The notes: generated by a model from the letters alone, not told the origin. 60,481 bases of DNA from an uncultured Fibrobacter sp. (GCF_937877005.1 NZ_CALEFV010000051.1:1-60481), one strand, 5' to 3'; positions 26,348 through 53,119 are shown, counted from the stretch's first letter. Numbers and translations are program-made.

Positions 26348-26383
26348 GAACTTGCCTTACCGCAGCTCTATTGTTAGTTATTG

Positions 26384-27967: not shown

Positions 27968-27987
27968 ACCCAAACATCCCTTTTCTG

Positions 27988-30105: not shown

Positions 30106-30118
30106 ATTTATCTCCCTT

Positions 30119-30139
30119 TTTACTATAAGGTTTACTATT
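30119..30139 (-). promoter_or_regulatory. Direct-repeat operator candidate AATAGTAAA-cct-TATAGTAAA
   Basis: Lies between TATATT (30142-30147, minus) and the RBS of the arabinanase gene; same 12-bp period as other cluster sites. Confidence 0.65.
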
Positions 30140-30273
30140 CAAATATACGCTTGTTTTTATTAAAAGTCAATGGTTTTGCAACAATTTCAGATAAAATGAT
30201 GAGATTTCTGCAACGCTTTGCTTGAAAAAAGTCTACACTTTGTAAAAGTTTGTTTCAAAAGGAATCATCAAAG

Positions 30274-30306
30274 AAAAATCCCCGACTACCTCGGCTGGGG
30301 ATTTTT
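30274..30306 (-). terminator. Intrinsic terminator after PL1 gene
   Basis: aaaaatcccc...ggggattttt stem-loop. Confidence 0.75.
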
Positions 30307-30339
30307 CATCAAGTTCTATACAATTCAGTCGCAACGCGA

Positions 30340-32118
30340 TCAGTCTTTTCGGATCAGCTTATTTACAATTCCACCATTCAGCTTCTGGCGGACGATGTAG
30401 CGGCCCTGCGGAAGGCCCTGCGTAGTCATGCCCACATAGTGGCCGTTCATATCAAAGATGCCTACCGTGACAGCATCTGCGCGAAGACGATACGTGTCAG
30501 CGAGGCGCGTAATAGATGAATCTTGCGTTGCCATGTCCGAGTCGCTTGAATCCTGCGCCGTCGTATCGGCGGCGATATCGTTTTTTTCCACAAGCACCTC
30601 GACGCGGCCCGTATATTCGGTATTGTCGTTGCCCTTCACGGTGTACTTGAACGAGGCGAGCCCGCTGAAATTCGCCTTGGGCGCAAACCTTGCCGTATAG
30701 CCGTCACCCGCCAGCTCCACGGTTCCGTTCTCCGCAGCAGACACACTGTAGGTCGGCGACACATCCTTGAACCCGCGCGTAATCGTGCGCAGGTCAAAAT
30801 CGAGGGACTTCCCGCCCACAGCCGACGCGTGCATGGCGCCCAGCCAGTTGATGTATTTCTCGATACGCACGTAGCCGTCGCTTTCATTGGTCATCGCGTC
30901 ATCTTTCGAGTTGTCATAACCCATCGCTTCTTCGAAGTAATCCGGCATACCGTCCTTGTCGGAATCTGTCGCGGCCTTTCCCGCAATCACCTCGCCCCAG
31001 CCGTTATTGGTTTTGATTCCCATGGCACCAACGCTTTTCACCAAGGCTCCTTCTTTCCCAAGTGTCCCCACCTGGTGCCATATCAGGGAATCAATGTCGT
31101 CGTACGGGAGCACGCCACTCTGCGACGTCACGTAGCGCCACGCACTTGCGGCACTGAGCATCGGGCCCGATGTCGTAAGTTCGCTCCAGGGTTTCGCAAG
31201 TTCCTCGCCCGCGCCCTGGTAGTAGTAAATGCTTGAAGGCCCGCCGTTCAGTTTTCCGTCGCGGTCCGTGTCAATCATGTTCCCGCTGGCGTAGATGCTC
31301 TGGTTCTTGTCTACCTGGAACCATGGGTTGCTTCCCTTCGGACCGTAGACAAAGTAATTGTTTACGATGTCGTGGTTGAAGTGCGTGCTAGTGTGCGTCG
31401 TGTAGCCCGCCTCGAAGTTGTAGAGGATGTTGTTCACGAACACGTCGTTGATCTTGTCAAGCGGGTTTCGGTTGTGCGTATTCACGAAGGCATTGTAGTA
31501 CCACGCCCAAGTGCCATCTACCGATTCGATGTGCGCCCCGAACTGCTGTCCGATAGGGTTTGCAATCAGCGAGTTCTGCACCGTTACGCCCGTCACACGG
31601 TAATCTTTATTATCAGAACTTCCGCCGAAGTTGTTCCACGACGCAAGTTCCACCGAGCAGTGATCCACAATCACGTTCTTCGCATCGTAAAGGTTGAGCG
31701 CATCGTCCTTTTCGGAGGCGGTATTTTCGCCCGGGCGTATACGCAGGTAGCGGATGATGATATTGCTCTGCTTGCCCGTGCTGAGCTTGCCGCCGTGAAT
31801 GGCGATTCCCTCGCCCGGGGCCGTCTGCCCCGCGATGGTAATGTTACTCTTGATGGAAACTGCCGTCTTGATGTTGATGATGCCACCCACGTCAAAGACC
31901 ACAATGCGGTTTCCCTGGCTTACCGCGTCGCGGAAGGATCCCGCACCGTCATCGTTCAGGTTCGTCACGTGATAAACGCTGCCGCCGCGGCCACCTGTAA
32001 CATTCGCCCCGAAGCCCAAAGCTTCAGGAAAGGCTAACGGCTCGGCACCCGCCCCGATAAAACCAAACACTGTTAGGCAGAGCGCCGATACCGCCGTCCT
32101 TGAACCAAGCATACCCAT
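30340..32118 (-). CDS. Pectate lyase family 1-like protein
   Basis: AFPEALGFG...GGRGG.VYHVTNLNDDGAGSFRDA, TIAGQTAPGEG, VDHCS, RNP, DSDKDGMPD. Confidence 0.88.
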   Translation of the reverse strand: MGMLGSRTAVSALCLTVFGFIGAGAEPLAFPEALGFGANVTGGRGGSVYHVTNLNDDGAGSFRDAVSQGNRIVVFDVGGIINIKTAVSIKSNITIAGQTAPGEGIAIHGGKLSTGKQSNIIIRYLRIRPGENTASEKDDALNLYDAKNVIVDHCSVELASWNNFGGSSDNKDYRVTGVTVQNSLIANPIGQQFGAHIESVDGTWAWYYNAFVNTHNRNPLDKINDVFVNNILYNFEAGYTTHTSTHFNHDIVNNYFVYGPKGSNPWFQVDKNQSIYASGNMIDTDRDGKLNGGPSSIYYYQGAGEELAKPWSELTTSGPMLSAASAWRYVTSQSGVLPYDDIDSLIWHQVGTLGKEGALVKSVGAMGIKTNNGWGEVIAGKAATDSDKDGMPDYFEEAMGYDNSKDDAMTNESDGYVRIEKYINWLGAMHASAVGGKSLDFDLRTITRGFKDVSPTYSVSAAENGTVELAGDGYTARFAPKANFSGLASFKYTVKGNDNTEYTGRVEVLVEKNDIAADTTAQDSSDSDMATQDSSITRLADTYRLRADAVTVGIFDMNGHYVGMTTQGLPQGRYIVRQKLNGGIVNKLIRKD

Positions 32119-32237
32119 AATCATCCAACCTTTTGATCCGTTTAAGGATTTCCTTTGGGGAATATACCTTCTTTTTACGCCAAGAGGGCGACATTCCCTA
32201 ATAACGGTTGTCCATGGACAACACGCAACCACAATCC

Positions 32238-33590
32238 CTAAAGGTCACCAGCCACACGTTTTTGCAGGGCGTAGAAGAGCCGCATCCAGTCGTTGGACTG
32301 CGTGCCGTCAAAGAAGAACACCTCGTCGATTCCGCCGCGAAGTCCGCCGTAGCCGATCGACGGGTTGAATGCGGTGGCAAAGCCTTCGCCCGCATCGAAC
32401 TGCCTGGTTTCAAGCAGCGTTCCGTCGATGAACGTAGTCACGCTATCGCCATGAATCTTGAACGAGTAGTTGTGCCACGTGCCGTCGAGCGCTCCGTTCG
32501 CGCGGCCCACGACCGTATTGTAAACGCCCGTACGCGTGTCGAGCCTGAGGTTCACCGCGCCCGACGTTCCGCGTTTCTGCAATCTGAATCCCGTGCTGTC
32601 CTTCTTGGCTGAAATAATTTGAGCGTATTCGCTCACCTGCATGGAATCGATATTGAACCAGATTGAAAGCCCCATGTAGTAGCCGTCTTCGGAGAAGGGC
32701 CTGAAATCGGAGATGTAGAACCAGTTGTCGGTAGAATCCGTCCAACGGGAATTGCCAAGCACGGATGTGAGTTCGTTGCCGGTAGCGAGAGCCGCTTCCG
32801 AAGGCGTGGCCGAGTCAAAATGTTCCGCGTAGCGGGCGAGTGCAAGTTCAATCCGGTCGCTGGACTGGCACGATTCTACGATGTCAAGGGAAATCGCGCC
32901 ATTCTCGTCGAAGGCGACCTGCGGCAGCATGCCCCAATAAACAGCGGAATCGGATGCTTTTACCGTAGGGGAGTCCGAAAGATCGGCACGACTGAGGCGC
33001 ACCATGTTGCCGTTAGCATCCAGCAGGCAGGGATTCTTTACTTCCGGGAGCCGGACCGCGAAAGGCATATCTTCGAACACTTCATCCGACAAGGCCAAAT
33101 CTTCAAAGCCCTCAGGAAGCACAAGCGCGACAGCGCCCTTGAATTCCGCATCCAGCGCGCGGTCGATATTCGTGGAATTTTCCTCGACGTTCCAGGAAAC
33201 AGCCACCGTACGCACGTTACCTTCCAGAGGGTGCACCGAAACGGATTCGTAATCGCCCACGGGCAGGCTATCGAGCGACATCACGCCCGACGCGCACTCA
33301 ATCGAGGTCGCCACATGCCTGTAATTCACCGTATCTACATACAAAGTGTCGCCCACGGTGTCGGCGCTCACCTTGAACACCACGACAGTATCGCCTGCGA
33401 CAATGTTCAGGTTCTCGACAGAAACGAGAACCCGAGCGACGCTCTTGTTGCCGGTATTCGTCTCGATAAGGATTCCGGCGGAATCCGCAGAAGACGTATC
33501 GCTGCAGCCCGCAAAGAAGGCGAGCGCGCACGCCGCGACAAAAGCGAACGCAAGTCGTCCCGAGCTAAACATATTCCTAAAGCGTCCCAT
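32238..33590 (-). CDS. Lipoprotein with C-terminal LamG/ConA-like jellyroll domain; partner of TIGR02147 protein
   Basis: Lipobox FAGC, AGILIETNTGN motif, LSIWFN...DGTWHNY...FIDG...GGIDEV...WMRLFY. Confidence 0.8.
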   Translation of the reverse strand: MGRFRNMFSSGRLAFAFVAACALAFFAGCSDTSSADSAGILIETNTGNKSVARVLVSVENLNIVAGDTVVVFKVSADTVGDTLYVDTVNYRHVATSIECASGVMSLDSLPVGDYESVSVHPLEGNVRTVAVSWNVEENSTNIDRALDAEFKGAVALVLPEGFEDLALSDEVFEDMPFAVRLPEVKNPCLLDANGNMVRLSRADLSDSPTVKASDSAVYWGMLPQVAFDENGAISLDIVESCQSSDRIELALARYAEHFDSATPSEAALATGNELTSVLGNSRWTDSTDNWFYISDFRPFSEDGYYMGLSIWFNIDSMQVSEYAQIISAKKDSTGFRLQKRGTSGAVNLRLDTRTGVYNTVVGRANGALDGTWHNYSFKIHGDSVTTFIDGTLLETRQFDAGEGFATAFNPSIGYGGLRGGIDEVFFFDGTQSNDWMRLFYALQKRVAGDL

Positions 33591-33604
33591 AAACACCTTC
33601 CTCC

Positions 33605-34462
33605 CTACGCCTCGCCCGTTCCGGACGGTTTATTGTTTTCGCGGATGTTGCTGAACACGTGTAGGTTCACGTGCTCTACGACGGTCGGTGTCTCGTTGTC
33701 GGCCATCACGATCTGGCGCACCTGCGCCTTGAATTTTTCGGCAGCCTTCTCGACCTTCGCCTGCGCGGATTTCGACACCGCGAACGTGAACGTGGTCATG
33801 TCGCGTGATTCGCTCCCTTCGGATTCCAGTGCCTGCTTCGAGAGTTCCAGGCACTGCTTCTGGAACTGGAGCACCATCTGGCTCTTGCTCTGCTGCACTG
33901 TGGCAAGGCTATCCTTCGTCGGCTTCCAGAACCCGCGTTCGTCCTTGCGCACGAGCGACATCTTCTGCATGAGTTCAAGGCTTGCCTTCAGGCGCTTCTC
34001 GGACACGGGCGGGAAAATCTTCGCCGCAAGTTCCGACACGTCGTCGCCCACATCCATCACCTCGAGAATCGCATAGACCGTGCTGTTGTACCAGTTGCCA
34101 AAGAACTCGTAGCTGTCCGGGTCCACAATCGCCTGCGGGTTCTTGTTCAGGCGCATCATGGCATCGAACGCCGCTTCGCGCACCTGGGCAGTCTTCCCCT
34201 GGTCGAAATCGACCATCGCCTCGAAATACCTCGCCTCATTTCCCTTGAGCCCGATGACGTTTATAAAACGCTCGCGCATGTTGTCGGTCACGCGTTTGCC
34301 CTGCACCACGTCATTGAAATAGCTGCGGGTATTGGGAAGTCCCAGAAGATTACAGAACTCGGTACGCGAAAACGAGGGCTCCGCCGCCTGACGGCGCTCC
34401 TGGTATTCCGCCAGGAACTTGCGGAACTTGGTAAACTCGAAAATGTTTACGAAGGTATTCAT
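33605..34462 (-). CDS. TIGR02147 / DUF4423 family protein (putative DNA-binding regulator)
   Basis: IFEFTKFRKFL..Y......PSFS...F...LG...RSYF..V..GKR; FFGNWY; RDMTTFTF; HVNLHVF. Confidence 0.9.
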   Translation of the reverse strand: MNTFVNIFEFTKFRKFLAEYQERRQAAEPSFSRTEFCNLLGLPNTRSYFNDVVQGKRVTDNMRERFINVIGLKGNEARYFEAMVDFDQGKTAQVREAAFDAMMRLNKNPQAIVDPDSYEFFGNWYNSTVYAILEVMDVGDDVSELAAKIFPPVSEKRLKASLELMQKMSLVRKDERGFWKPTKDSLATVQQSKSQMVLQFQKQCLELSKQALESEGSESRDMTTFTFAVSKSAQAKVEKAAEKFKAQVRQIVMADNETPTVVEHVNLHVFSNIRENNKPSGTGEA

Positions 34463-34483
34463 ATTATTAAATATACATAAAAA

Positions 34484-34504
34484 TGTAGTACATGGTATAG
34501 TAAA
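34484..34504 (+). promoter_or_regulatory. Direct-repeat operator candidate TGTAGTACA-tgg-TATAGTAAA
   Basis: In the divergent TIGR02147/PL11 intergenic region, 8 bp from the TIGR02147 TATATT element. Confidence 0.65.
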
Positions 34505-34774
34505 AGTTGAAAATTTTCCCTGTACGGGACGCGTTCAAGCCCCGCCTCGGGGTGTTGACACTCGAAACAGGCGCAAAAAATGGCGAAAACGGGGCATTTT
34601 TCGGCAATTTCTCTACAAATGTGGACATTTTATAGTAATAAACAATCGACAGACTTTGTAAAATAAGGTAAATTATTGAGAAAATGTAGACTTTTAATAA
34701 AAATTTAGATTATATTAAAAATCGGTACGATATGTACCGTTTGGTGAAACATCTACCCTTTTGGGGAGGAAAAT

Positions 34775-37357
34775 ATGGTGTATTGTGGTAAGAAAGCGCC
34801 GCTTGCGGCGTGTGTAGCGTTGTCCTTTGGACTCGCCATCCCGTCTTTCGCGGCCCCGCGTCAGATGGAAAACCTGAGCCGCGGTCTCGTGGCTTCTAAC
34901 GTCGGAAAAGGCATGCTGGTCAGCTGGCGACTGCTCGGGAGCGACGCCCCGAATACCGAATTCAACCTCTACCGCGACGGGACAAAAATTGCGACCATCG
35001 CAGGCAACGGCGCGACAAACTACCTCGACGCTTCGGGCAAGGCGACCTCCAAGTATACGGTCGCCGCAGTCGTGGACGGCAAGGAAGGCGCGCAGGCCAG
35101 GCTCTCGTTCGTGTTCGACAAGTCGGCCAATTCCGACGGCAAGAACATCCCGTACGCGACCCTCAAGCTCGACCGCCCGGGCGACCTCAAGATGCCCGAC
35201 GGTTCCAGCTGCAGCTACACCTCGAACGACATGAGCGTGGGCGACCTGGACGGCGACGGGGAACTCGAACTTGTCGTAAAGTGGGACCCGAGCAACCAGA
35301 AGGACAACTCGCAGAGCGGCTACACGGGCAATGTGTATATTGACGGCTACAAGATGAACGGCAAAAAGCTGTGGCGCATCGACCTGGGCAAGAACATCCG
35401 CGCGGGCGCCCACTATACGCAGTTCATGGTCTACGACCTGGACGGCGACGGCATCGCCGAAGTCGCCATGAAGACAAGCGACGGCACGGTCGACGGTACG
35501 GGCAAGGTCATCGGCGACAAGAGCAAGGATTACCGCACAAAGACCGGCACCATCATGAGCGGGAACGAGTTCCTGACCGTGTTCAACGGTAAAACCGGTG
35601 CGGCCATCACGACCATCGACTACGTGCCGGGCCGGGGCGTCACCAAGAACTGGGGCGACACCTACGGCAACCGCAGCGAACGCATGCTCGCGGCCATCGC
35701 CTACCTCGACGGTGTGCACCCGAGCCTTATCATGTGCCGCGGTTACTACACCAACGCCTACGTGGTGGCCTACGACTTCGACGGCAAGCAGCTCAAGCAG
35801 CGCTGGTACCACAAGTCCGAAACGAGAGGCCAGGGAATCCACGGCCAAGGCAACCACAACCTTTCCGTGGGCGACATCAACGGCGACGGCAAGGACGAAA
35901 TCGTGTACGGTTCCGCGGCCCTCAAGTCCGACGGCACGCTCCTTTACCGCACGGGGCTCGGCCACGGCGACGCGCTCCACCTTTCCGACATGGATCCCGA
36001 CCGCCCGGGCCTTGAATCGTGGGATGTTCACGAAGAAAAGTCCGCCGCCTATACCGACGACTTCCGCGGCCCCGACGGCAAGATCATCTGGGGCACCAAG
36101 CAGCCGAACCCGGGCGTAGACAACGGCCGAGGCCTCGCCGCAGACATCGACGCGGACCACCGCGGATTCGAGATGTGGAGCAGCGCGGGCGACGGCGTGA
36201 AGAACGTGAAGGGCCAGAAGATTTCGGGCAGCAAGCCCTCGGTGAACTTCCGCATCTATTTCGACGGCGACTTGCAAGACGAACTGCTTGACGGCGCAAT
36301 AGACAAGTGGAGCACCAAGGACAAGAAGGCGAACCGCTACTTTACCTACGGCAACGTGAACAAGTCCACTACGAACAACGGAACAAAGAAGAACCCGAGC
36401 CTCGTGGCCGATTTGTTCGGCGACTGGCGCGAAGAACTTATCCTGCGTTCGGGCAGCGACGCCTCCATGATTACGATTTTCGGCACTCCGGTCACGACGG
36501 ATTACCGCGTGTACACCCTGATGCACGACCCGCATTACCGCGTGAGCATTGCCTGGCAGAACGTGGCCTACAACCAGCCACCGCACCTGGGCTACTACCT
36601 GCCCGACGCGGTAAAGAACCTGAAGCAGCCTTCCATTTATCTCGCAGGTGACGGTACTACCCCTGTGGTTATTGACCCGGTGATTGTCGACCCCGTTATT
36701 CCCGAGATCAAGCACGACATGACGAAGGAATCGTTCGTGGATGCATCCGCCCCGGCAGAAGGTAAAGGTACCTTCGAAGACACGAACGAAGGCTGGAAAG
36801 AGAAGGGCTACTACAACTTCGACAACGATGCGGCGAGCTTTGCCACCTGGAAAGTGACCGCGAAGGAAGACGCGAAGACGACCGTCTCCATCGTGTTCGC
36901 AAACGGCGGGAACGATGCCCGCGACATGAACCTCTCCGTAAACGGTGGCGAAGCGGTCAGCGTAAGCCTGCCTTCTACCGGCAGCTGGACCACATGGCAA
37001 GAAGTCCAGGTTCCCGTGAACATCGTGAAGGGAGAGAATACGCTCAAGCTCTCCTCCACCACGGAGAACGGCGGCCCGAACGTGGACGGTTTCTACTTCG
37101 GGGTACCGGGTGTGACGCTTTCCTCTGCAGAAGGGACGACCGCCCTTGCGACAAGCGTACAGAAGCTTGCCCGTGGCGGATATGCCGAAATCGAGATTTA
37201 CAACATGAGTGGCCGCATCGTGGGGACCATCGCGAAGTTTGTCGCCGCGGGCGAGAGCGCCGTGGACCTCTCGCAGGAACCGCTCCCGAAGGGGAGTTAC
37301 CTCGTGCGCGTAAAAATCGACGGCAAGTACATCTCCAAGGGAATCTTTAAGAAATAG
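34775..37357 (+). CDS. Rhamnogalacturonan lyase family 11 (YesW/YesX-like) with CBM35-like module
   Basis: RQMENLSRGLVA, LVSWRLLG, DLDGDG repeats, NIRAGAHYTQFMVYD, QGNHNLSVGD, WQNVAYNQPPH. Confidence 0.95.
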   Translation: MVYCGKKAPLAACVALSFGLAIPSFAAPRQMENLSRGLVASNVGKGMLVSWRLLGSDAPNTEFNLYRDGTKIATIAGNGATNYLDASGKATSKYTVAAVVDGKEGAQARLSFVFDKSANSDGKNIPYATLKLDRPGDLKMPDGSSCSYTSNDMSVGDLDGDGELELVVKWDPSNQKDNSQSGYTGNVYIDGYKMNGKKLWRIDLGKNIRAGAHYTQFMVYDLDGDGIAEVAMKTSDGTVDGTGKVIGDKSKDYRTKTGTIMSGNEFLTVFNGKTGAAITTIDYVPGRGVTKNWGDTYGNRSERMLAAIAYLDGVHPSLIMCRGYYTNAYVVAYDFDGKQLKQRWYHKSETRGQGIHGQGNHNLSVGDINGDGKDEIVYGSAALKSDGTLLYRTGLGHGDALHLSDMDPDRPGLESWDVHEEKSAAYTDDFRGPDGKIIWGTKQPNPGVDNGRGLAADIDADHRGFEMWSSAGDGVKNVKGQKISGSKPSVNFRIYFDGDLQDELLDGAIDKWSTKDKKANRYFTYGNVNKSTTNNGTKKNPSLVADLFGDWREELILRSGSDASMITIFGTPVTTDYRVYTLMHDPHYRVSIAWQNVAYNQPPHLGYYLPDAVKNLKQPSIYLAGDGTTPVVIDPVIVDPVIPEIKHDMTKESFVDASAPAEGKGTFEDTNEGWKEKGYYNFDNDAASFATWKVTAKEDAKTTVSIVFANGGNDARDMNLSVNGGEAVSVSLPSTGSWTTWQEVQVPVNIVKGENTLKLSSTTENGGPNVDGFYFGVPGVTLSSAEGTTALATSVQKLARGGYAEIEIYNMSGRIVGTIAKFVAAGESAVDLSQEPLPKGSYLVRVKIDGKYISKGIFKK

Positions 37358-37373
37358 AACCCCCATAAACTCC

Positions 37374-37414
37374 CCGTCTAGCGCCCTTTCTCGGAAGGGC
37401 GTTAGGCGGCTTTT
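37374..37414 (+). terminator. Stem-loop / terminator after PL11
   Basis: ccgtctagcgccctt...aagggcgttaggcgg followed by ctttt. Confidence 0.65.
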
Positions 37415-37451
37415 AACATTAACGGATTTTACAAAAAGGGATTGGTTTAAA

Positions 37452-39224: not shown

Positions 39225-39233
39225 GGAGCCAGC

Positions 39234-41120: not shown

Positions 41121-41146
41121 TTTACAAAAAATTTTGAAATTTTTTC

Positions 41147-41185
41147 TTGCATTTTTAAAAATTTTATAGTACATTTTGTAGTACA
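41147..41185 (+). promoter_or_regulatory. Promoter (TTGCAT-17-TACATT) overlapped by direct repeat TATAGTACA-ttt-TGTAGTACA
   Basis: -35 at 41147-41152, -10 at 41170-41175, repeats at 41165-41173 and 41177-41185. Confidence 0.7.
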
Positions 41186-41216
41186 AGTATAAACGCGTGT
41201 TCAAAGGGATGGAATT

Positions 41217-42881
41217 ATGGATTACAAAACTGAAATCAAGGGCTACGATACCCTTGTCAAAACCGCCACGATGGTGACTGTCGCAGCGCTTCTGGCAGCT
41301 TTCTCTATGGCAGAAGCCGCAGAAAACTACAAGTTCGACTTTGGCGAGGGCCCGGTTGCCGCGGGCTACACGCAGGTCAAGGCCAACACCAAGTACAGCG
41401 ACTCGCAGGGCTACGGTTTCGAAAGCGGGACGGTTTCTTCGGTAGACCGCCTGTGGGACGACGACCTCACCACGGATTTCCTGACGGCGAAGGGCGACAT
41501 GGTTTTCTCGGTGGCGCTCCCGCAAGGCAATTACGAGGTGACATTCATTCTCGGTGACGGCGAAAACGAAAGCGAAACCACCGTATGGGCCGAAAACCGC
41601 AAGCTCATGCTCGACCGCATCACCCTCGCCGGCGGCGTGTTCAGCAGGCAGACCGTTTCGCTCAGGCGTATGGAAACAAGAAGCATGGACGGCTCGGTGA
41701 CCATGAGCATCAAGGACCGCGAAAAGGATTACCGCACCTGGGACAAAAAACTCACCTTCGTCATCAGCGGCAAGGCGCCCGCCGTCGCAGGAATCGAAAT
41801 CAAGCGTAACGACAACGTGACCACGCTCTGGCTCTGCGGAAATTCCACCGTGGTCGACCAGATAATGGCACCGTGGGCGGGCTGGGGCCAGATGGCCCCG
41901 GGATTTTTCAAATCCAGCCTTGCCATCGCGAACTACGCCGAATCGGGCCTTACCGCCAGCGGGTTCTACAGCATGAAGCGCCTCGCAAAGATTCTTTCCG
42001 AAGTCAAGAAGGGCGACTTCGTGACCGTGCAGTTCGCGCACAACGACCAGAAGAACCAAAACGACGTGAACAACTACGAAGCGACCCTCACCAAGTACGC
42101 AAACGAAATCAAGGCGAAGGGCGCCATTCCGCTGTTCGTGACATCCACCGCAAGGCAGAACGAGACCGACCCGAAAACAGCCGTGGGCGGGCTTCCCGAA
42201 CGTATGCGCGCCCTCGGCAAAAAGCTCGGCGTCACCGTGCTTGACCTGAACCAGCACAGCATCACGCTCGGCAAGGCGCTCGGAGGCAACAAGGAAAAAA
42301 TGTACATGTACACCGCGAGCGACAAGACGCACTTCTGCGAATACGGCGCCTACGAACTCGCCCGCGCGAACATCGAAGAAATCAAGGCGAAGGTACCCGA
42401 ACTCGCCAAGCACCTGCGCGATGATCATGATGCGTTCGATTCCAGCAAGCCCGATCCGCTCGACATTCTCACTCGGGCAAAGACGCCCATCACCGAAGGC
42501 GGGCTGATTCAAGTGGAACCGGAATCCAGCTGTTCCGAAGATCCGGAATCCTCTTCAAGCGAAGAAATCACCGGTCCGCAGTCTTCCAGCGCAGAAGGCG
42601 CATCTTCCGGCACAGAAGATACCGAAGGCGTCACCGCTGTTGAATCCTTGACTCCGCACAACGCCATCAGCGGGCGAATCGACGGTAGCACGCTCCGTCT
42701 CGAAGGCATCGACGGAGGCGCGCACGACATCAGCATCTTTGACATGCAGGGTCACCGCATCGCTGAATTCCGCGCCATGCAGGGGAACGAACTCCACATC
42801 ACCCTGCGGCAAGGAGCCTTCCTCGTCAAGGTCGCGCAAGGCAACAGAACTCTCGGTTTTTTCAAAGCCGTAAGGTATTAA
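41217..42881 (+). CDS. CE12 rhamnogalacturonan acetylesterase (RhgT/YesT-like)
   Basis: YKFDFG N-terminal domain, GNSTVVDQ..PWAGWGQM, NYAESG, QFAHND, DKTH. Confidence 0.9.
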   Translation: MDYKTEIKGYDTLVKTATMVTVAALLAAFSMAEAAENYKFDFGEGPVAAGYTQVKANTKYSDSQGYGFESGTVSSVDRLWDDDLTTDFLTAKGDMVFSVALPQGNYEVTFILGDGENESETTVWAENRKLMLDRITLAGGVFSRQTVSLRRMETRSMDGSVTMSIKDREKDYRTWDKKLTFVISGKAPAVAGIEIKRNDNVTTLWLCGNSTVVDQIMAPWAGWGQMAPGFFKSSLAIANYAESGLTASGFYSMKRLAKILSEVKKGDFVTVQFAHNDQKNQNDVNNYEATLTKYANEIKAKGAIPLFVTSTARQNETDPKTAVGGLPERMRALGKKLGVTVLDLNQHSITLGKALGGNKEKMYMYTASDKTHFCEYGAYELARANIEEIKAKVPELAKHLRDDHDAFDSSKPDPLDILTRAKTPITEGGLIQVEPESSCSEDPESSSSEEITGPQSSSAEGASSGTEDTEGVTAVESLTPHNAISGRIDGSTLRLEGIDGGAHDISIFDMQGHRIAEFRAMQGNELHITLRQGAFLVKVAQGNRTLGFFKAVRY

Positions 42882-42904
42882 CTCTCTCGCAACAACACAC
42901 CTCC

Positions 42905-42938
42905 AAAAAATCCCCGGCCGATTGGTCGGGGATTTTTT
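42905..42938. terminator. Bidirectional intrinsic terminator between convergent operons
   Basis: aaaaaatccccggcc...ggtcggggatttttt. Confidence 0.85.
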
Positions 42939-42954
42939 TATCGCTATAAGAAAA

Positions 42955-45732: not shown

Positions 45733-45837
45733 ACAAAACTCCTTTCTGCCCACAAAAATACCCTCGGATTTGCTCCGGGGGTAGGGTAAAAGAAATTTCC
45801 AGTTGTCCGCGGACTACGGCGGGCACCTGCGGTGCCA

Positions 45838-48084
45838 CTACTTTGCGAATGTGGGCTGCATTGCCTTGCGGTTGCCTGCACGCCGGGCATTCACCGCGCG
45901 GCCATTCACGTAGAACCGCTTGCCTGTGCGGGCCTTGGATATTTCCGCAGGGGCAATCTTGCGCAGTACGGTCGTACCGGAGTCTGCCCGCACGAACTCA
46001 ATCTTGTCGATATTCGGGGCACCGTCTTCCGTGAGCGACGCAATTTCCAAGGTGTTTACGCCGGCAGGAATCTTGAGCGTCAATTCCGCATCGTTCCATG
46101 TGGTCCATCCACCCGTCGGCTCCAGGTCCAGCTTTTCTAACAGAACCTTGCCGTTTACCGAAATGCTTACGGGGCGGTTCGCACTCCCGCCATTTGCGAA
46201 AGTCAGCTTGACATTGCGTTCATCGCCTTCGGGTAGGCAAAGTGCAAACGTAATCGAGGAACCCACCGCATTGTTCAGGTTCGCGTAGCCCTTGCCCGAA
46301 AAGCCTTCGTGCTTGTCCTCGAAAAGCGTCTGATTGAATACGGTATTTTCCGCCTCATATTTGAGCGAATCCTTGCCCACGAACTTGAACGCGGCACCAA
46401 GATTCACGTCCTTCGCGAGACTTGTCACAATGTATTCCTTGTCGAGCCCGCTTGCATCTCCGCTCCAGCCTGCAAATTCCCAGCCGTCCAGAGGTGTCGC
46501 GGTAAATGTGACATTCGAGCCCTCGGGAATTTCCGTGCCGGCAATATTCTGGGCAATCGTCCCGCCAGTTCCCGCATCGAGCGACACCTTGTAGCTCTTG
46601 CCCGACTTGATTAGTTCGATGTCGTCGACAGCAATCCACTGGCTAGAAGAACCCGCGGTGCTAAACCCGATGGTTATCTTCCCGTTCGTCACGGTGATGT
46701 TTTCCACTGCCTTCTTCGTCCAGTTGCCTGCAGCCGCGGCAATAGACACGCTCTGCTCGCTGCCGCCGAAATCCTTCGCGAACATCTTCGCGGAACTCTG
46801 CCCACCGCTACTCTGCACATAGGCGCTCAGGGTGTACTTCCCGTTGGGCACCGTCAATGTCTGCGTAAGCGTCTTGCTGTCCGTCAGGTAGAGCCCCCAG
46901 CGGCCCGTGCGTTTCTTGGATGTGGAATTGATATTGTTGGCATCGGCCTTGTCCAGTTTCCAGCCCGTCAAGGTCGTCTGGCTCACGCGATCCGCCTCGA
47001 ATGTCGGATTCAGGCAATAGTTGTTGCCCGCGCCCACGCTCCACGTGCCTTCCTTCACGTTGATGTTCCACTCGCTCAGGGAATGGAACACGGGTTTGCC
47101 CGTCTCGAAAGAAATAGGCAGCCACTGGTTGTAACCGAGTCCATTCCCTGCGAAATCGCTCCAGCGGTCACCCGCGTTCACCACAAACGAACCCTTCGAG
47201 CCCTTCACCATGACAAAGAACCCGGTCTGAGTCACGTGACTAAAGTCGTGCTGCGTTCCTTCAAGTACGAACTCTTCGCTGTAGGGGCCCAGGATGTTTG
47301 TCGCCGACATGCAATACGTCTGCGAAGTGTTCCAGCCGTGCAAATCAGAAGAGCAGAAGTAGTAAACGCCGTTCTGCTTGAACATGGCGTTCCCTTCGCG
47401 GCCACCCACGCGACTCTTGTGGATATTCACCGTCCTGGAACCGTCAATCGCCAAAAAATCCGATTCACGGAGCGGTGCTACATACAAGTTAGTACGGCCC
47501 TTCACGTTAGACGCAATCACGTACGCCTTGCCGTCATCATCCTGGAAAAGCGTCTGGTCGCCGGTATTGTTGTTCACGAAGAACGTCATCTCGCTTTCGG
47601 GCTGCACGCGTGCAAACTTGAACGGCCCCGTAGGGGAATCGCTGGTAGCAAAATACTCGCCGAATTCCCAGCTCGGGCTTGCACCCTGGCCCGCGAGCAC
47701 ATACTTCTTACTCTTCGCGTTGTACACGACGCCAATGCGCCCGAACCATCCACCGCCCGCTTCGCTCGGCTTCAGCACGATTCCCTCGAATTTCCAGTTG
47801 ACCAAATCCTTCGAGGAATAGCAGGTGACGCCCGCAAATCCGGTATCGTCGTTTTTCTTGGTAGGGTTCGCCGCGTATGTAACGGCGCCGTTGTACTTGA
47901 CTCCGTACCAGTAGAACGTATCGCCCACCTGGAGCACGCCACCGCCCTGCGAATAGATAAAGTTGCCGTCTGTATCTTTCCAGAAACGGTCATTTACGAT
48001 AGTCTGCGCCGTAGCCGTACCGGCAAGGGATGCAACAAGCAATCCCCCGGCAAGCGCCGTCTTGAATAAACTCATCTTTTTCAT
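45838..48084 (-). CDS. GH43 hydrolase (resembles subfamily 24 beta-1,3-galactanases) with B-repeat and CBM35-like modules
   Basis: WKDTDGN.I..QGGG...GDTFYWYG, YSSKDLVNW, DQTLFQDDDGKAY, REG..MFK, GDRW. Confidence 0.8.
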   Translation of the reverse strand: MKKMSLFKTALAGGLLVASLAGTATAQTIVNDRFWKDTDGNFIYSQGGGVLQVGDTFYWYGVKYNGAVTYAANPTKKNDDTGFAGVTCYSSKDLVNWKFEGIVLKPSEAGGGWFGRIGVVYNAKSKKYVLAGQGASPSWEFGEYFATSDSPTGPFKFARVQPESEMTFFVNNNTGDQTLFQDDDGKAYVIASNVKGRTNLYVAPLRESDFLAIDGSRTVNIHKSRVGGREGNAMFKQNGVYYFCSSDLHGWNTSQTYCMSATNILGPYSEEFVLEGTQHDFSHVTQTGFFVMVKGSKGSFVVNAGDRWSDFAGNGLGYNQWLPISFETGKPVFHSLSEWNINVKEGTWSVGAGNNYCLNPTFEADRVSQTTLTGWKLDKADANNINSTSKKRTGRWGLYLTDSKTLTQTLTVPNGKYTLSAYVQSSGGQSSAKMFAKDFGGSEQSVSIAAAAGNWTKKAVENITVTNGKITIGFSTAGSSSQWIAVDDIELIKSGKSYKVSLDAGTGGTIAQNIAGTEIPEGSNVTFTATPLDGWEFAGWSGDASGLDKEYIVTSLAKDVNLGAAFKFVGKDSLKYEAENTVFNQTLFEDKHEGFSGKGYANLNNAVGSSITFALCLPEGDERNVKLTFANGGSANRPVSISVNGKVLLEKLDLEPTGGWTTWNDAELTLKIPAGVNTLEIASLTEDGAPNIDKIEFVRADSGTTVLRKIAPAEISKARTGKRFYVNGRAVNARRAGNRKAMQPTFAK

Positions 48085-48095
48085 AAACCACCCCG

Positions 48096-49754
48096 TTATT
48101 TTGAATAAGTCCTGATTCTCGATGCCTTGCGGTCACCTGTACGCAGCGCATTTACCGAGCGACCGTTCACGTAGAACAGGCGGCCCGGCTGCTGCATGTT
48201 CGGCTTGCGTTGCGGAAGCGGGCGCACAAACGTCGTCGAATCACCCACAGAAACTTCCGTAGAATCCGCAATCGTATCGACCGGCGCAACCGACGTATCG
48301 ACCGGAACGACAATCGGCGTTACAGCAGTATCCTTCGGCGTGGTATCGACCGGCACTATAACAGGCGACACATAGCCGTATTCGTATGCGCCCAGGTCCG
48401 GAGCCTTGCCCTCGTACTTGAGACCCATGTTCACGCCCTTGTCAATCATCTGGCTGTTCTTTGCGAGCTTCAGGAAGTCAACATCCGGAAGGCTACCGTC
48501 GGCCTGGCGCGGGCCGAACGCACCGCCGAGAGGCCCGAGTTCCCTGCCCGTCACGGTCATGCTCGGGTCCGACACGCTCACGAAATCCGATTCCTTCGGG
48601 GTGATGTTCAGGTTCCAGGTATTGTATTCGCCCGCCGCATATTCACCGCCGATGTAGGCCGTCTTGTTCGGGAAGGCAATGTTATTCTTCATTACGTGAG
48701 CCTTGCTGCCCTTGAGCACGACACCGTCGGTGCGGTTGTCATTTGCATCCCAGGTGCTCGCCCACATGTTGAACGCCGTGCCGTTCATATAGGCCGTATT
48801 GTTGAACCAGTCGTTACCGCCGCTGCTGTGGTTTGCGTAAAAGCCCGACGCCTTGTTTTTCCAGGCGACGCAGTTGCGGATGGTGTGGCGCACACCCGTC
48901 TTGCTGCTCCCCGCCTTGAAACCGTTGCCGTTGCCATCCTTCGGTTTGCCGGTCCCGTAGTTGCTGTAGCCGTGGCCCATCGCCCAGCTGTTCTCGATAA
49001 CCACCGGGAACTCCTGGCTAATAAAATCCCAGCCGTCGTCGCTGTTCCACCAGGCACGGCAACCGATGAACTTCGTTGTATCGCCACCCTGCTGGTAGTG
49101 CACGCCAAAGCCATCGGCATTCTGGCCGTCTCCCTGGCGTCCGTTGGGGTCGTAGTTGTCGTGACTGTCGCAGTTCAAGAACAAATGTCCGCCGCCGCTT
49201 CCCGAGCCCTTCTCGTTTACGAAGAATCCCGAACCGCCGTTGTGGTGGCTATCGATCAGTTCCAAGAAGATATGCTTACTGCGGGACACGTACACGCCCA
49301 CATTCGATTCGCCCTTCATGGGAACGTTCTTGACTTCGAGCCCCTTCAAGTGCAAGTACTGCGCCTGAATGAGGATACCCGAAGTGTACCTTACGTTGTT
49401 CGAACCGTTGGCAATCGGCATCTTGCTGAAGTCAATGACCGGCTTTTCGCCCGGGTACGCGAGGTAATGAATGCGCTTGTTGTCACTTGAACCGCTCTTG
49501 GTCAGGTGAATGCCCGCGAACATGTTGTCGTTTTTCACATAGTTCGTGTCCGTGTGCAGGTAGGTGCCGCCGCGAATCCACACGGTATCGCCCGCGTTCA
49601 CCACGGAATTCGCCTTGTTGAGGGTCGCAAACGGGCTATCCTTCGTTCCCTTGTTCGTATTCTTGCCAGCGGGGGCCACGTAGTAGGTCGCCCCGAAAGT
49701 TTCCGCAGCAGCCAGGGCAATCACGGCCGCACACAACACGCGCTTCATTTTCAT
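48096..49754 (-). CDS. Polysaccharide lyase family 9 (PelL/RG lyase-like)
   Basis: YYVAPAG..GT...PFAT, NADGFG, WNSDDGWD, GNGNGFKAG, APDLGAYE. Confidence 0.9.
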   Translation of the reverse strand: MKMKRVLCAAVIALAAAETFGATYYVAPAGKNTNKGTKDSPFATLNKANSVVNAGDTVWIRGGTYLHTDTNYVKNDNMFAGIHLTKSGSSDNKRIHYLAYPGEKPVIDFSKMPIANGSNNVRYTSGILIQAQYLHLKGLEVKNVPMKGESNVGVYVSRSKHIFLELIDSHHNGGSGFFVNEKGSGSGGGHLFLNCDSHDNYDPNGRQGDGQNADGFGVHYQQGGDTTKFIGCRAWWNSDDGWDFISQEFPVVIENSWAMGHGYSNYGTGKPKDGNGNGFKAGSSKTGVRHTIRNCVAWKNKASGFYANHSSGGNDWFNNTAYMNGTAFNMWASTWDANDNRTDGVVLKGSKAHVMKNNIAFPNKTAYIGGEYAAGEYNTWNLNITPKESDFVSVSDPSMTVTGRELGPLGGAFGPRQADGSLPDVDFLKLAKNSQMIDKGVNMGLKYEGKAPDLGAYEYGYVSPVIVPVDTTPKDTAVTPIVVPVDTSVAPVDTIADSTEVSVGDSTTFVRPLPQRKPNMQQPGRLFYVNGRSVNALRTGDRKASRIRTYSK

Positions 49755-49770
49755 ACCTCGCCTCATCCTG

Positions 49771-51600
49771 TTACTTTGTATATACCCTGATTCTTGACGC
49801 GCGGTTCTTCAATGCACCCGCAGAACGCCCGTTCACCAGGAAGTTCCGGCCACCGTTACGGAGCGTATTGCTGCGCACAGGGATCCGCTGGAGCACCGTC
49901 GTGCCGCTGTCGCCCACCGCCGAGTCGCCGGGATTGACAGGAACCACCGCGTTTTTATCCACGAACTCGATGCGGTCGATATTCGGGCCGCCATCCTTCG
50001 TGAGCGAGGCAATAGTGATGGCGCTTGCACCCGCAGGCAACCTGAGCGTCACCACGCTAGAATCCCACGATTCCCAGGCACCCGTCGATTCGAAGTCCAC
50101 CGATTCCACCTGCACCTTGCCATTCACCGCAACACTTACCGGGCGGTTTGCCGTAGAGCCGTTCGCAAAGACAATCTTCACGTCCTTATCGCCCTCGTCG
50201 GCAGCAACCACGGAAAGCGTCACCGAAGACCCCTCCTCGTTATCGAGATTCGCGTAGCCCTTGCCCGAAAAGCCCTCGTGCGTCGATTCAAGAACCGTCT
50301 TGTTGAACACGCCGTTTTCCGCCTCGTACTTGAGCGAATCCTTACCCACGAACTTGAAGGTCGCGCCCAGGTTCACATCCTTGTCGAGACTTGCCACCGT
50401 GTATTCCTTGCCGTTACCCGTATTGTCGCCGGTCCACGCCACGAATTCCCAACCCTCCTGCGGAACGGCCGTAAAGGTCACCTTGCTCCCTTCGGCAATT
50501 TCACTACCCTCGATGCTCTGCGCAATCGAGCCGCCGTAAGCGACCGTCGTCTTCACGTTGTACTTCTTTACGGCCTTGCCGTTCTGCACCCAGTCCGGGA
50601 GCGTCGCGTTATATTTTTTCGCGATATCGCGCAGTTCCCTAAGGCGCGCATTCGCCGTATATTTCTGTCCGTCGCGATCGAACATCGGTTTTTTGCTGTA
50701 GCGGGTCGGCTCCCACACGAAGGTTCCCCAGCCCAGGTCGCCAAATTCATAGAACACCGAGTTCACGAGGGCCGTGCGTTCGCCCGTATATTCGCAGCTC
50801 AGCACCGCCTTCTTGTTCTTGACCACGAGCCCGAACATATCGCGCCAATCCTGCCCGTTGTTCGTGGTGCCGTAGGTGGAACCGCAAATGGCATCGTAGT
50901 CGATGTTCGCGTGAATCTTGTTGTACCAATCCGCGAAGCCCTTCTCGGGGCGCGGCTGACCATGCTGCATCACAATCTTGATAGAAGGATCCGTCTCGCG
51001 CACCGCACGCACACCCGAATTGATGATGTTCGCGAAGTCCGCCGTCTTGCTCAGCGAAACGCCCGCCACCCTCGAGTTGATTTCATTACCCACCTGCACC
51101 ATGTCGGGGCGAAGTCCCGCCTTCATGAGCGCATCCATGGTCGTCTTCACGTGGTTATAGGCGAGCTTGCCCATCTCGGCATTGCTCTTGCCCGCCCAAG
51201 AGGCCGGAACATCCTGGTGGCCGATGGAGGCCCACGTGTCGCTCATGTGGAAATCCAGGAAGAATCCCATGTTGTGCGCCTTGATGCGCTTCGCAAGCGC
51301 AATGGTATGTTCCAGATCGCACCAGCACACGTTGGAATTTGCGCCGGAGTAGCTGTTCTTCGCGTAGCCGATGCACGAATTCACGAAGGTGCGCACGCGG
51401 ATAAAGTTGATTCCGTGGTTCTGCAGGATATCAAAAAGGTCCTGCTGCTTGCCGTTATCGTAGTATTTTGCCCCCAGCGACTCGTCTTCGAGCACCCACG
51501 AGACATCGACACCCACGATATACGGGCGCGCAAGCGCCGCAACCGCCACGGCACCCAGAACCAGCACCGTTTTCCTGATGACTTTTCCCAATCCAAACAT
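49771..51600 (-). CDS. GH53 endo-beta-1,4-galactanase with B-repeat and CBM35-like module
   Basis: GVDVSW, G.NFIRVR.FV, LDFHMSDTWA..G.Q..P.SW, MVQVGNE, FVWEP. Confidence 0.92.
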   Translation of the reverse strand: MFGLGKVIRKTVLVLGAVAVAALARPYIVGVDVSWVLEDESLGAKYYDNGKQQDLFDILQNHGINFIRVRTFVNSCIGYAKNSYSGANSNVCWCDLEHTIALAKRIKAHNMGFFLDFHMSDTWASIGHQDVPASWAGKSNAEMGKLAYNHVKTTMDALMKAGLRPDMVQVGNEINSRVAGVSLSKTADFANIINSGVRAVRETDPSIKIVMQHGQPRPEKGFADWYNKIHANIDYDAICGSTYGTTNNGQDWRDMFGLVVKNKKAVLSCEYTGERTALVNSVFYEFGDLGWGTFVWEPTRYSKKPMFDRDGQKYTANARLRELRDIAKKYNATLPDWVQNGKAVKKYNVKTTVAYGGSIAQSIEGSEIAEGSKVTFTAVPQEGWEFVAWTGDNTGNGKEYTVASLDKDVNLGATFKFVGKDSLKYEAENGVFNKTVLESTHEGFSGKGYANLDNEEGSSVTLSVVAADEGDKDVKIVFANGSTANRPVSVAVNGKVQVESVDFESTGAWESWDSSVVTLRLPAGASAITIASLTKDGGPNIDRIEFVDKNAVVPVNPGDSAVGDSGTTVLQRIPVRSNTLRNGGRNFLVNGRSAGALKNRASRIRVYTK

Positions 51601-51659
51601 CCTTCACTCCTTTGATTTTAGTTTATCGCTATTTTGTTTACGCCTTTTTCAAACTTTGT

Positions 51660-51723
51660 TGTACTATAAATTGTACTATAATTTTCTATAAATATAACTC
51701 TTTTTACTACAAAGCGTACTATA
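51660..51723 (-). promoter_or_regulatory. Two direct-repeat operator candidates flanking a TATATT -10 element
   Basis: Minus strand: TATAGTACG-ctt-TGTAGTAAA (51703-51723), TATATT (51691-51696), TATAGTACA-att-TATAGTACA (51660-51680). Confidence 0.72.
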
Positions 51724-51759
51724 ATTTTTGAAAAATTTTAAAATTGGCGATTTTGGGCG

Positions 51760-51787
51760 AAAAACGGGCCCACAGGGGCCGGTTTTT
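51760..51787 (-). terminator. Probable terminator after yhcG-like gene
   Basis: aaaaacgggcc...ggccggttttt imperfect stem. Confidence 0.5.
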
Positions 51788-52948: not shown

Positions 52949-53004
52949 CTTCTACTCCTTCCGCCTACAAGCAAAAAAAGGCGGGGTAAAGTGTTCTCGA
53001 TACA

Positions 53005-53036
53005 AATATACATTCCCCGGATGTCACATTATGACA
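53005..53036 (-). promoter_or_regulatory. Palindrome TGTCA-N5-TGACA 11 bp upstream of a TATATT -10 element
   Basis: tgtcacattatgaca at 53022-53036; aatata at 53005-53010. Confidence 0.55.
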
Positions 53037-53119
53037 ATCGTCGAAATTCGCGGAAATTTTGAGAATTTTGACGCCCCCCCCCGCAGGCGGTTGAAATCTG
53101 CATTGTCACCTTGTAATGC

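Follow-up and report, generated by a model that had tools for sequence, protein, structure and literature searches.

The window analysed here is a 60,481-nucleotide stretch of DNA from an uncultured Fibrobacter sp. (GCF_937877005.1, NZ_CALEFV010000051.1:1-60481; positions are counted from its first letter), and it carries a pectin cluster in which a short direct repeat recurs at four promoter regions between 30119 and 51723, next to a gene for a 285-residue TIGR02147/DUF4423 protein that is the candidate regulator. Gene identities were taken from Pfam and NCBIfam, and operons were inferred from spacing. The candidate regulator gene (33605..34462, minus strand; NCBIfam and Pfam) is followed 8 nt downstream by the gene of a Laminin_G_3 lipoprotein with a lipobox-like N terminus (the "partner"; 32238..33596, minus; Pfam), and a LamG-type gene lies downstream of the regulator in all relatives examined. 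Another 5 nt downstream, presumably in the same operon, is a gene for a PL1-type pectate lyase (30340..32232, minus; Pfam and NCBIfam). Two tandem GH43 genes 14 nt apart (27988-30105, with a CBM6, called GH43a, and 26384-27973; both minus, Pfam) form a presumed operon (26384..30105), and so do the genes for GH53 (49771-51600), PL9 (48096-49766) and a further GH43 protein (45838-48084), all on the minus strand (Pfam) and separated by gaps of 4 and 11 nt (45838..51600). A third CE12 gene (CE12c; 41217..42881, plus; Pfam) encodes a GDSL and a galactose-binding-like domain.

The repeat unit is 9 bp long, has the consensus T-R-TAGTA-M-A and occurs as two or three units at a 12-bp period. Five pairs of this 9-mer had been claimed in a preliminary description of the window, and their coordinates and period were verified in all five cases. 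The proposed operator sequence, TRTAGTAMA-N3-TRTAGTAMA, fits exactly at 34484 (plus), 41165 (plus) and 51660 (minus) and with one mismatch at 30119-30139 (minus-strand reading AATAGTAAAcctTATAGTAAA) and 51703-51723 (minus-strand reading TATAGTACGcttTGTAGTAAA). Exact consensus pairs were observed three times in the window against zero expected (100 shuffles) and the single 9-mer nine times (shuffle mean, 0.44; largest, 3), one of these nine copies (at 18492) lying within a long open reading frame (ORF). An additional half-site described at 34631-34639 (TATAGTAAT) has one mismatch to the consensus and is lost even in the close relative G077.

The assembly searched (genome G000) comprises 3,445,186 bp in 357 contigs and is 95% complete. 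In it, the pattern TAGTA-N7-TAGTA has five matches, which are exactly the five reported sites. Five sites match the 21-mer with at most one mismatch, every one of them in the window, which bears out the statement that the repeat is unseen in intergenic DNA outside the cluster; one further site has two mismatches and 23 have three, including two re-readings of the window's own sites. Control patterns in this genome were matched as often (TAGTA pairs at a 9-bp period, 5 matches; the pattern read backwards, 6), and the raw count is unremarkable. Exceptional are the confinement of five of five matches to one 21.6-kb stretch, their intergenic location on core promoters and their extra conserved flanking positions; by our own arithmetic, the chance of four more matches falling within 21.6 kb of a first in 3.45 Mb is ~2.5e-8.

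Positions of the pairs relative to the promoters were counted from presumed -10 hexamers; the GH43 promoter came from a consensus scan, and for the other three we relied on the sequence itself and on conserved TATATT or TACATT hexamers. At the GH43 operon, a promoter-like sequence TTGACT-17-TATATT (30142..30170, minus; 10/12 in the scan, a consensus match only) is followed 2 nt past the -10 by the pair at 30119..30139 (minus), which covers about -4 to +17. The putative promoter of the regulator gene has its -10 TATATT at 34470..34475 (minus), 7 nt before the ATG, and the pair at 34484..34504 (plus; TGTAGTACAtggTATAGTAAA; about -41 to -21) points away from the gene and ends 8 nt upstream of this hexamer. 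At CE12c, the pair (41165..41185, plus; TATAGTACAtttTGTAGTACA) lies over the -10 and the start site (about -16 to +5) of the presumed promoter TTGCAT-17-TACATT (41147..41175, plus), the -10 being made by the 3' end of the first repeat. The GH53 operon has a presumed -10 TATATT (51691..51696, minus) between two pairs: the distal one (51703..51723, minus; about -39 to -19) ends 6 nt upstream of it, and the proximal one (51660..51680, minus; TATAGTACAattTATAGTACA; about +5 to +25) starts 10 nt after it. The pairs thus lie between -41 and +25, in line with the earlier remark that they overlap or closely flank -10 elements. The positions vary and yet stay within the polymerase footprint, which suggests repression.

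Neither at GH53 nor at the regulator gene did we find, by reading sequence and alignment, a -35-like hexamer 16 to 18 nt upstream of the conserved TATATT, unlike at other promoters of the genome, where clear TTGACW-17-TATATT arrangements occur. This would suit a protein that acts on the same sites as an activator, or as both activator and repressor, with the pair substituting for the -35 element and recruiting RNA polymerase. We regard such an activating role as unlikely. Activator sites usually lie at a fixed -41.5 or -61.5, whereas the site centres here are near -30, -6, +7 and +15; the near-consensus GH43 promoter needs no activator and has its pair on the start site; and the second GH53 pair is downstream of the -10. 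As the -10 of the regulator gene is only 7 nt from its ATG, a leaderless or near-leaderless mRNA is implied there, and the same arrangement occurs in many of its paralogues and orthologues. Many TIGR02147 genes have TATATT 6 to 9 nt before an ATG or GTG and no Shine-Dalgarno sequence (window 34463-34475 and paralogue upstream regions), which suggests that leaderless mRNAs are a feature of the family.

We compared 101 genomes of the genus, G000 being the present one. An orthologue of the regulator (61 to 100% identity) was found in 22 of them, G000 included, the next best matches being paralogues with at most 48% identity, and all 22 have a TAGTA pair 20 to 50 bp upstream of the regulator start. 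In the 79 genomes without an orthologue, GH53-type double sites were present, among the matches listed, only in G062 and G097, and in both the contig breaks off exactly at the expected position of the regulator gene. GH53 orthologues were likewise found in 22 of 101 genomes, all of which have the locus or a broken contig of it; with GH53 present only where the locus is, this gene could not separate the motif from the regulator. The locus was retrieved from 13 of the 21 relatives, as 12 full loci (L031-L034 and L063-L070) and one 3-kb contig (G103, L078).

Despite rearrangements of the locus, the pairs recur at the same functional places in these relatives. Orthologous upstream regions were aligned for GH53 (8 regions), CE12c (7) and the regulator (9). 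Upstream of GH53, two pairs flank a conserved TTATATT that is invariant in eight of eight aligned genomes, and the distal pair and the proximal pair (10 to 19 nt from the -10) are each conserved in all eight. The CE12c site is kept in six further aligned genomes, its TACATT being covered by a pair, as in G000, or by triple units (G001, G011, G066, G071 and G053), and TTGATT or TTGCAT is kept along with TACATT. The pair upstream of GH43a is present in G005, G077, G013, G101 and G002. Full conservation upstream is confined to the repeats, the -10 and the Shine-Dalgarno sequence; the flanks have substitutions and indels, and the GH53 proteins of the aligned set are 68 to 100% identical. Phylogenetic footprinting, the check proposed with the motif, therefore came out in its favour, the pairs being kept in orthologous promoters across diverged species while their flanks diverge. 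Two side observations belong here: a triple match of a different spacer type occurs on contig C108 of G048, and G001, G011 and G066 (L031, L032 and L068) share a GH53 leader of about 95 nt that is mutually conserved (GTCTRGGCG...GGGATGATTGGATA) and has no counterpart in the window.

With placement and conservation in hand, it is very improbable that the repeats are something other than protein operators, whether promoter elements of an alternative sigma factor, a signal in an RNA leader, recombination sites or products of chance. In favour of one or another of these, transcription would run through part or all of three of the five pairs, rearrangements of the locus between species fall at the borders of modules, and the raw genome-wide count equals that of the control patterns. 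Two identical units 12 bp apart, at varying distances from the -10, nevertheless misfit the -35/-10 geometry of a sigma element. As for an RNA signal, the regulator pair is upstream of its -10 and on the opposite strand, and so outside that RNA; no Rfam match reached the gathering threshold in 29000-53000; and the repeat-bearing leaders fold no better than shuffled ones (z = -0.25, 0.12 and -0.80). In relatives, the sites are not accompanied by a recombinase gene, and conservation across about five lineages excludes chance.

The relatives also clarify to which gene the 34484 site belongs. In seven genomes (G005, G013, G001, G011, G066, G053 and G071), CE12c stands directly beside the regulator gene and is transcribed divergently from it, and the 34484-type and 41165-type sites both lie in the intergenic region between them. 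In G000, G077 and G097, a block of PL11 (34775-37357), CE12a (37452-39224) and CE12b (39234-41120) genes, all on the plus strand (Pfam/NCBIfam), stands between the two (34775-41120), and from this comparison of gene orders the block is an insertion into the ancestral divergent region in this lineage. The site at 34484, which had been assigned to a divergent TIGR02147/PL11 region, lies in relatives in the intergenic region shared by regulator and CE12c and so belongs to the regulator promoter, the PL11 block having come later. For the same reason, the earlier statement that all pairs have one orientation relative to the downstream carbohydrate-active enzyme gene is right as written, but without the PL11 insertion the 34484-type pair faces CE12c, away from the regulator. 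PL11 has a promoter-like site of its own (TAGACT-18-TATATT) with two copies of a different conserved motif, AATGTRGAC, and its rhamnogalacturonan I (RG-I) lyase module is therefore probably not under the TAGTA operator. A similar string of genes (PL11-CE12-CE12-TIGR02147-PL1), the same module as in the window, was seen on contig C317 of G000.

Whether the units are to be read as direct or inverted repeats is a question raised by the unit itself, which is nearly palindromic (TGTA-G-TACA) and makes the 21-mer a near-palindrome as well. We analysed the flanks of 52 distinct sites from 15 genomes (16 loci plus the window). Outside the selection pattern the flanks are asymmetric, position 8 being C or A and not the complement of position 2. 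A central G is found in both units of every site, which is descriptive only, as this column is fixed by the selection pattern. Flank asymmetry, central G and the triple units at CE12c favour a head-to-tail arrangement.

The candidate regulator matches TIGR02147 (NCBIfam, Fsuc_second paralogous family) with 249.4 bits over residues 5-273 of 285 (cut-off, 50) and DUF4423 (Pfam PF14394) with 76.8 bits over residues 107-271 (gathering threshold, 30); Pfam finds DUF4423 only, and no Pfam helix-turn-helix family matched at an E value of 0.001. The family profile gave weak matches to XRE regulators among Protein Data Bank (PDB) sequences (C.BclI, E = 0.0066; C.AhdI, CI and HigA; range, 0.0066 to 0.15) over residues 24-84. 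In the AlphaFold model (predicted local distance difference test [pLDDT], 88.7), a five-helix N-terminal domain (helices 13-27, 33-39, 48-53, 60-70 and 74-88) is followed by a linker, of which residues 109-111 have a pLDDT below 50, by a helix-helix-helix-hairpin unit and by long C-terminal helices. Foldseek returned no PDB match for this model at E = 0.001. In VIA comparisons, residues 8-96 matched HigA/3pxp with Z values of 7.4 to 8.3 (root mean square deviation [rmsd], 2.4 to 3.0 Å over 73 to 80 residues), which are middling by the tool's own note, as a Z below 8 can mean a common arrangement. Residues 106-195 matched ArsR, PadR and MarR proteins with a Z of up to 9.1 (2oqg, rmsd of 6.5 Å over 97 residues; 2p4w, 2.9 Å over 78) and no match at the sequence level. 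A homodimer model scored 0.59 against 0.00 for the best control, with runs agreeing in at least 91% of contacts and a partner pLDDT of at least 79; this level was attained by 1 of 23 monomers and by 20 of 30 proteins known to form homodimers. The predicted interface is two-fold symmetric and formed by residues 198-274. The protein thus models as an XRE-type helix-turn-helix with a winged-helix-like domain and a C-terminal dimer interface.

Ten orthologues, with overall identities as low as 61%, hardly differ in residues 33-53, which comprise helix 2, the turn and helix 3. The mean column entropy of this stretch is about 0.11 bits (own arithmetic) in the orthologues that share the TAGTA sites, and the same columns are highly variable in 24 paralogues; P43 is an insertion absent from 23 of these. 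Constraint is weaker in the "recognition" helix of the winged-helix-like domain (155-167), at about 0.51 bits. With residues 33-53 frozen in orthologues and variable in paralogues, and helix 155-167 looser, the XRE head is taken to be the reader of the repeat. The family as a whole comprises 5090 representative clusters at an E value of 0.001 or better, and a literature search on the two family names, TIGR02147 and DUF4423, returned no characterised member and only a DUF4423 protein listed in a proteomics table.

That the operators are genuine and belong to another transcription factor encoded elsewhere, with the TIGR02147 gene merely one of its targets, strikes us as quite improbable. The link between site and protein is indirect, made up of adjacency, co-occurrence and reading-head conservation; the whole locus is gained and lost together; and the TIGR02147/DUF4423 family is without a characterised member. 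A scan of ORFs between 26.4 and 54 kb, however, found no other regulator-like gene, and the TIGR02147 promoter has a site in all 22 genomes with an orthologue, the usual signature of autoregulation. The helix-turn-helix is moreover frozen among the orthologues that share the motif, and at a paralogue another repeat occupies the corresponding place.

Expression data were available for the matching genes of Fibrobacter succinogenes S85. The regulator orthologue of this strain (P0014; 89% identity) is FSU_2524 according to NCBI, and we infer that FSU_2524 is Fisuc_2001 from a constant offset in a table of PMC3079729 and from the label "TIGR02147". According to the available part of an RNA-seq study (PMC6204037), Fisuc_1993 to Fisuc_2001 all belong to expression cluster 15 (29 of 3119 genes), and clusters 13, 15, 16 and 17 hold genes that rise at slow growth. 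The annotations there are pectate lyase, CBM6, hypothetical, arabinogalactan endo-beta-1,4-galactosidase (GH53), three GH43, hypothetical and TIGR02147; Fisuc_2002 was assigned to cluster 16. Genome G101 has these gene types in the same order, arranged in three same-strand strings, each headed by TAGTA pairs: GH53 with downstream genes, three GH43 genes, and the regulator followed by a LamG-type protein. The S85 clustering is independent experimental support for co-regulation of this set, the regulator included, and is silent on repression versus activation; the joint rise of regulator and targets fits auto-activation as well as auto-repression. Site conservation in the regulator's own promoter (22 of 22), the predicted DNA-binding fold and this co-expression together uphold the suggestion, made with the motif, that the 33605-34462 protein is the candidate factor. 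Public RNA was taken from four gut metatranscriptome runs (Logan contigs; X1 to X3 from one study, X9 from another), which cover the cluster at a likeness of at least 93%. One RNA contig spans 45769-51131, which is not proof of a single GH53-PL9-GH43 transcript. Contigs do not reveal where transcripts start, and the four on the regulator gene, which end at 34217-34445 without reaching the ATG, were given no weight.

We consider it likely that the repeats are operators of the adjacent TIGR02147/DUF4423 protein, and that this protein is, most probably, an autoregulated local repressor. The regulator would bind as a dimer with one XRE reading head per repeat, each head being joined by the flexible linker to the winged-helix-like and dimerisation domains, and the operators, all between -41 and +25, are on DNA that RNA polymerase has to cover. 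Four units would be repressed in this way, namely regulator-LamG lipoprotein-PL1, the two GH43 genes, CE12c and GH53-PL9-GH43, and a signal would release them. The controlled set would consist of enzymes for galactan, arabinan and pectin side chains. The earlier proposal of one factor, probably a repressor, governing a pectin/RG-I regulon is thus supported in its core: every computational test that we ran fits it (uniqueness, conservation, the site in the regulator's own promoter, fold and co-expression), and the PL11 RG-I lyase module is probably outside.

Several observations weigh against this reading of the repeats as operators of an autoregulated local repressor. The GH53 and regulator promoters lack a recognisable -35, and the pair sits in its place, which would also suit an activator. 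As 12 of the 21 relatives are 95 to 100% identical in the regulator, the independent lineages number only about five, and as regulator and targets are gained and lost as one block, co-occurrence does not distinguish this protein from some other binder. The dimer is predicted to have two-fold symmetry, a property usually paired with inverted repeats, and binding to direct repeats needs a flexible linker; a symmetric dimer with such a linker could still bind direct units, by analogy with AraC. RNA contigs cross the CE12c and GH53 operators (41137-42598 and 47882-51768) and so lend no support to the assumed start sites. A 12-bp repeat as a family-wide rule was tried and is unconvincing: in the upstream regions of 27 paralogues, period 12 gave a mean best match of 6.0/10 against 5.0 to 5.7 for other periods, and 4 of 27 reached at least 8. 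Finally, in the available text of PMC6204037, expression of the S85 gene set changes with growth rate and with attachment to cellulose in pectin-free cultures, so that the signal may not be derived from pectin.

Genes of the TIGR02147 family number 28 in the genome. The nearest paralogue (contig C173, 46% identity) has TTCTCA repeats at a 12- to 13-bp period immediately before its own TATATT and GTG start; repeats of this kind (TTCTCAAAA, 12-bp period) are at C173:1277-1340 and at C328:3966-3985, the latter being the only other TTCTCA pair in G000, 47 bp upstream of a PL1 gene. Two or three TTCTCA units are present in G000 and at the orthologues of G001, G071 and G101, and one in G013 and G005. 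A third motif, AATGTRGAC(W)TTTT, is found in the PL11 promoter at 34618-34626 and 34683-34691 (plus), where the proximal copy overlaps the -35-like TAGACT. It recurs at about 30227-30235 (minus), ~100 bp upstream of GH43a, and this copy is kept in G005, G077, G013, G001 and G066, of which G001 and G066 have it at a GH43a that lacks TAGTA sites. Elsewhere in G000 it stands twice upstream of the paralogues on C317 (8544 and 8567) and C302 (1526 and 1545) and, in three copies, in front of a PL11 gene on C335 (20282, 20309 and 20373). AATGTRGAC may be the operator of another paralogue; the observations on both motifs are leads, not proofs. A second paralogue in the window (11304-12179, minus) scores 66 bits lower, precedes a lipoprotein gene (10048-11304) and has no obvious upstream repeat.

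TIGR02147 genes are followed, after a gap of a few bases or with an overlap, by a gene for a protein of about 280 to 1000 aa (18 examined, from window positions 32238-33596 and 10048-11304 and loci L086-L102). All 18 downstream proteins start with a hydrophobic segment and then a lipobox-like (A/G)C(S/G/T), a motif judged by eye, which in many is followed by a VAGG-type sequence; their C-terminal domains are CarboxypepD_reg, Fib_succ_major, Laminin_G_3, CBM_4_9, pectate lyase or none known. From gene order and these N termini, the pair looks like a conserved regulator-lipoprotein cassette. It is conceivable, though we lean against it, that TIGR02147/DUF4423 is a lineage-specific family of factors wiring the cell-wall enzymes of Fibrobacter, in which each paralogue would have a motif of its own and form an autoregulated two-gene cassette with a surface lipoprotein. 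Equally tentative is the assignment of motifs that this would entail, with TAGTA used here, TTCTCA by the nearest paralogue and AATGTRGAC at PL11 genes and at the C317 and C302 paralogues. The cassette lipoprotein, with its LamG, Fib_succ_major, CarboxypepD_reg, CBM or PL1 module, may then sense polysaccharide outside the cell.

Other features of the locus were noted in passing. Genes for a YhcG/DUF1016 PDDEXK nuclease and an ORF6N/Rha-type protein (51806-54082) abut the GH53 promoter, and as the DNA upstream of the distal pair differs in G005, G013, G075 and G101, they look like a strain-specific insertion. A PL1-like gene (42955-45753, minus; Pfam/NCBIfam), whose likely S85 counterpart is Fisuc_2002 in a different expression cluster, is preceded at 45754-45837 by a conserved GTAGTCCRCGGACAAC-like block and by a hairpin with a T-run after it; G013, G101, G095 and G002 have both, G053 retains them in part, and they may represent a terminator plus another regulatory site. 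The ORF at 26381-27952 (plus) was rejected as a gene, being an antisense shadow of the GH43 gene at 26384-27973 with no Pfam match on the plus strand, and further long antisense shadow ORFs lie over enzyme genes at 28132-30225 (plus) and 34715-37366 (minus).

Control of cellulase genes is called an unanswered question in the S85 genome paper, with few recognisable regulators nearby, in the part of that paper available (PMC3079729), and in the S85 RNA-seq study, as available, hemicellulase genes are "tightly regulated" with no regulator named, the terms "regulator" and "transcription factor" occurring 0 times in its main text (PMC6204037). The present finding supplies a concrete cis-element, a candidate cognate protein and a ready set of promoters for tests, and so a first opening for experiments on how this degrader of plant fibre turns its pectin and galactan enzymes on and off. 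If the assignment is right, it would give DUF4423 a function and clear the way for mapping regulons in an important fibre degrader of the rumen, an organism with few genetic tools.

Among known systems, Cro/CI-type XRE proteins (C.BclI, C.AhdI, phage CI and HigA) come closest, the features in common being a putative N-terminal five-helix helix-turn-helix (by the weak profile and structural matches), binding sites over the regulator's own promoter, which imply autoregulation, and a dimeric state. They read inverted repeats, whereas the sites here are direct repeats with a G in the same orientation in both units and sometimes three units, and the C-terminal two thirds of the DUF4423 protein (winged-helix-like plus helical, strand-swapped dimer domain) have no counterpart in them. 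AraC of Escherichia coli uses a symmetric dimer domain and a flexible linker to place two heads on direct-repeat half-sites near a promoter. The resemblance is one of mode of action only, as the candidate regulator has no AraC-type helix-turn-helix (Pfam) and AraC mainly activates and has another ligand domain. Regulators of the OmpR/PhoB type bind tandem direct repeats over the -35 region with a period of 10 to 11 bp, close to one turn of the helix; the present protein has no receiver domain (Pfam), the period is 12 bp, and some of the sites cover the -10 or the start site.

KdgR (IclR family) of Dickeya and Pectobacterium represses pectinolysis from palindromic operators that overlap the promoters of pectate lyase and accessory genes and senses a pectin catabolite. 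A pectin regulon with promoter-overlapping sites would be common to both; the protein family differs. No IclR-type protein was found among the 14 ORFs scanned in 27988-54082, a scan in which the KdgR box itself was not searched for. F. succinogenes hydrolyses pectin without using it, as stated in the available part of PMC3079729, so that a KdgR-like catabolite signal is unlikely. The present locus was also set beside the polysaccharide utilisation loci of Bacteroidota. Those have locus-specific regulators beside the enzyme genes, either hybrid two-component systems or extracytoplasmic function sigma/anti-sigma pairs; no SusC/SusD, histidine kinase or sigma factor was seen among the ORFs scanned here, and the candidate is instead a small cytoplasmic protein of the one-component type. 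The system is thus of a conventional kind, drawn from an undescribed family of regulators and built on an unusual direct-repeat operator.

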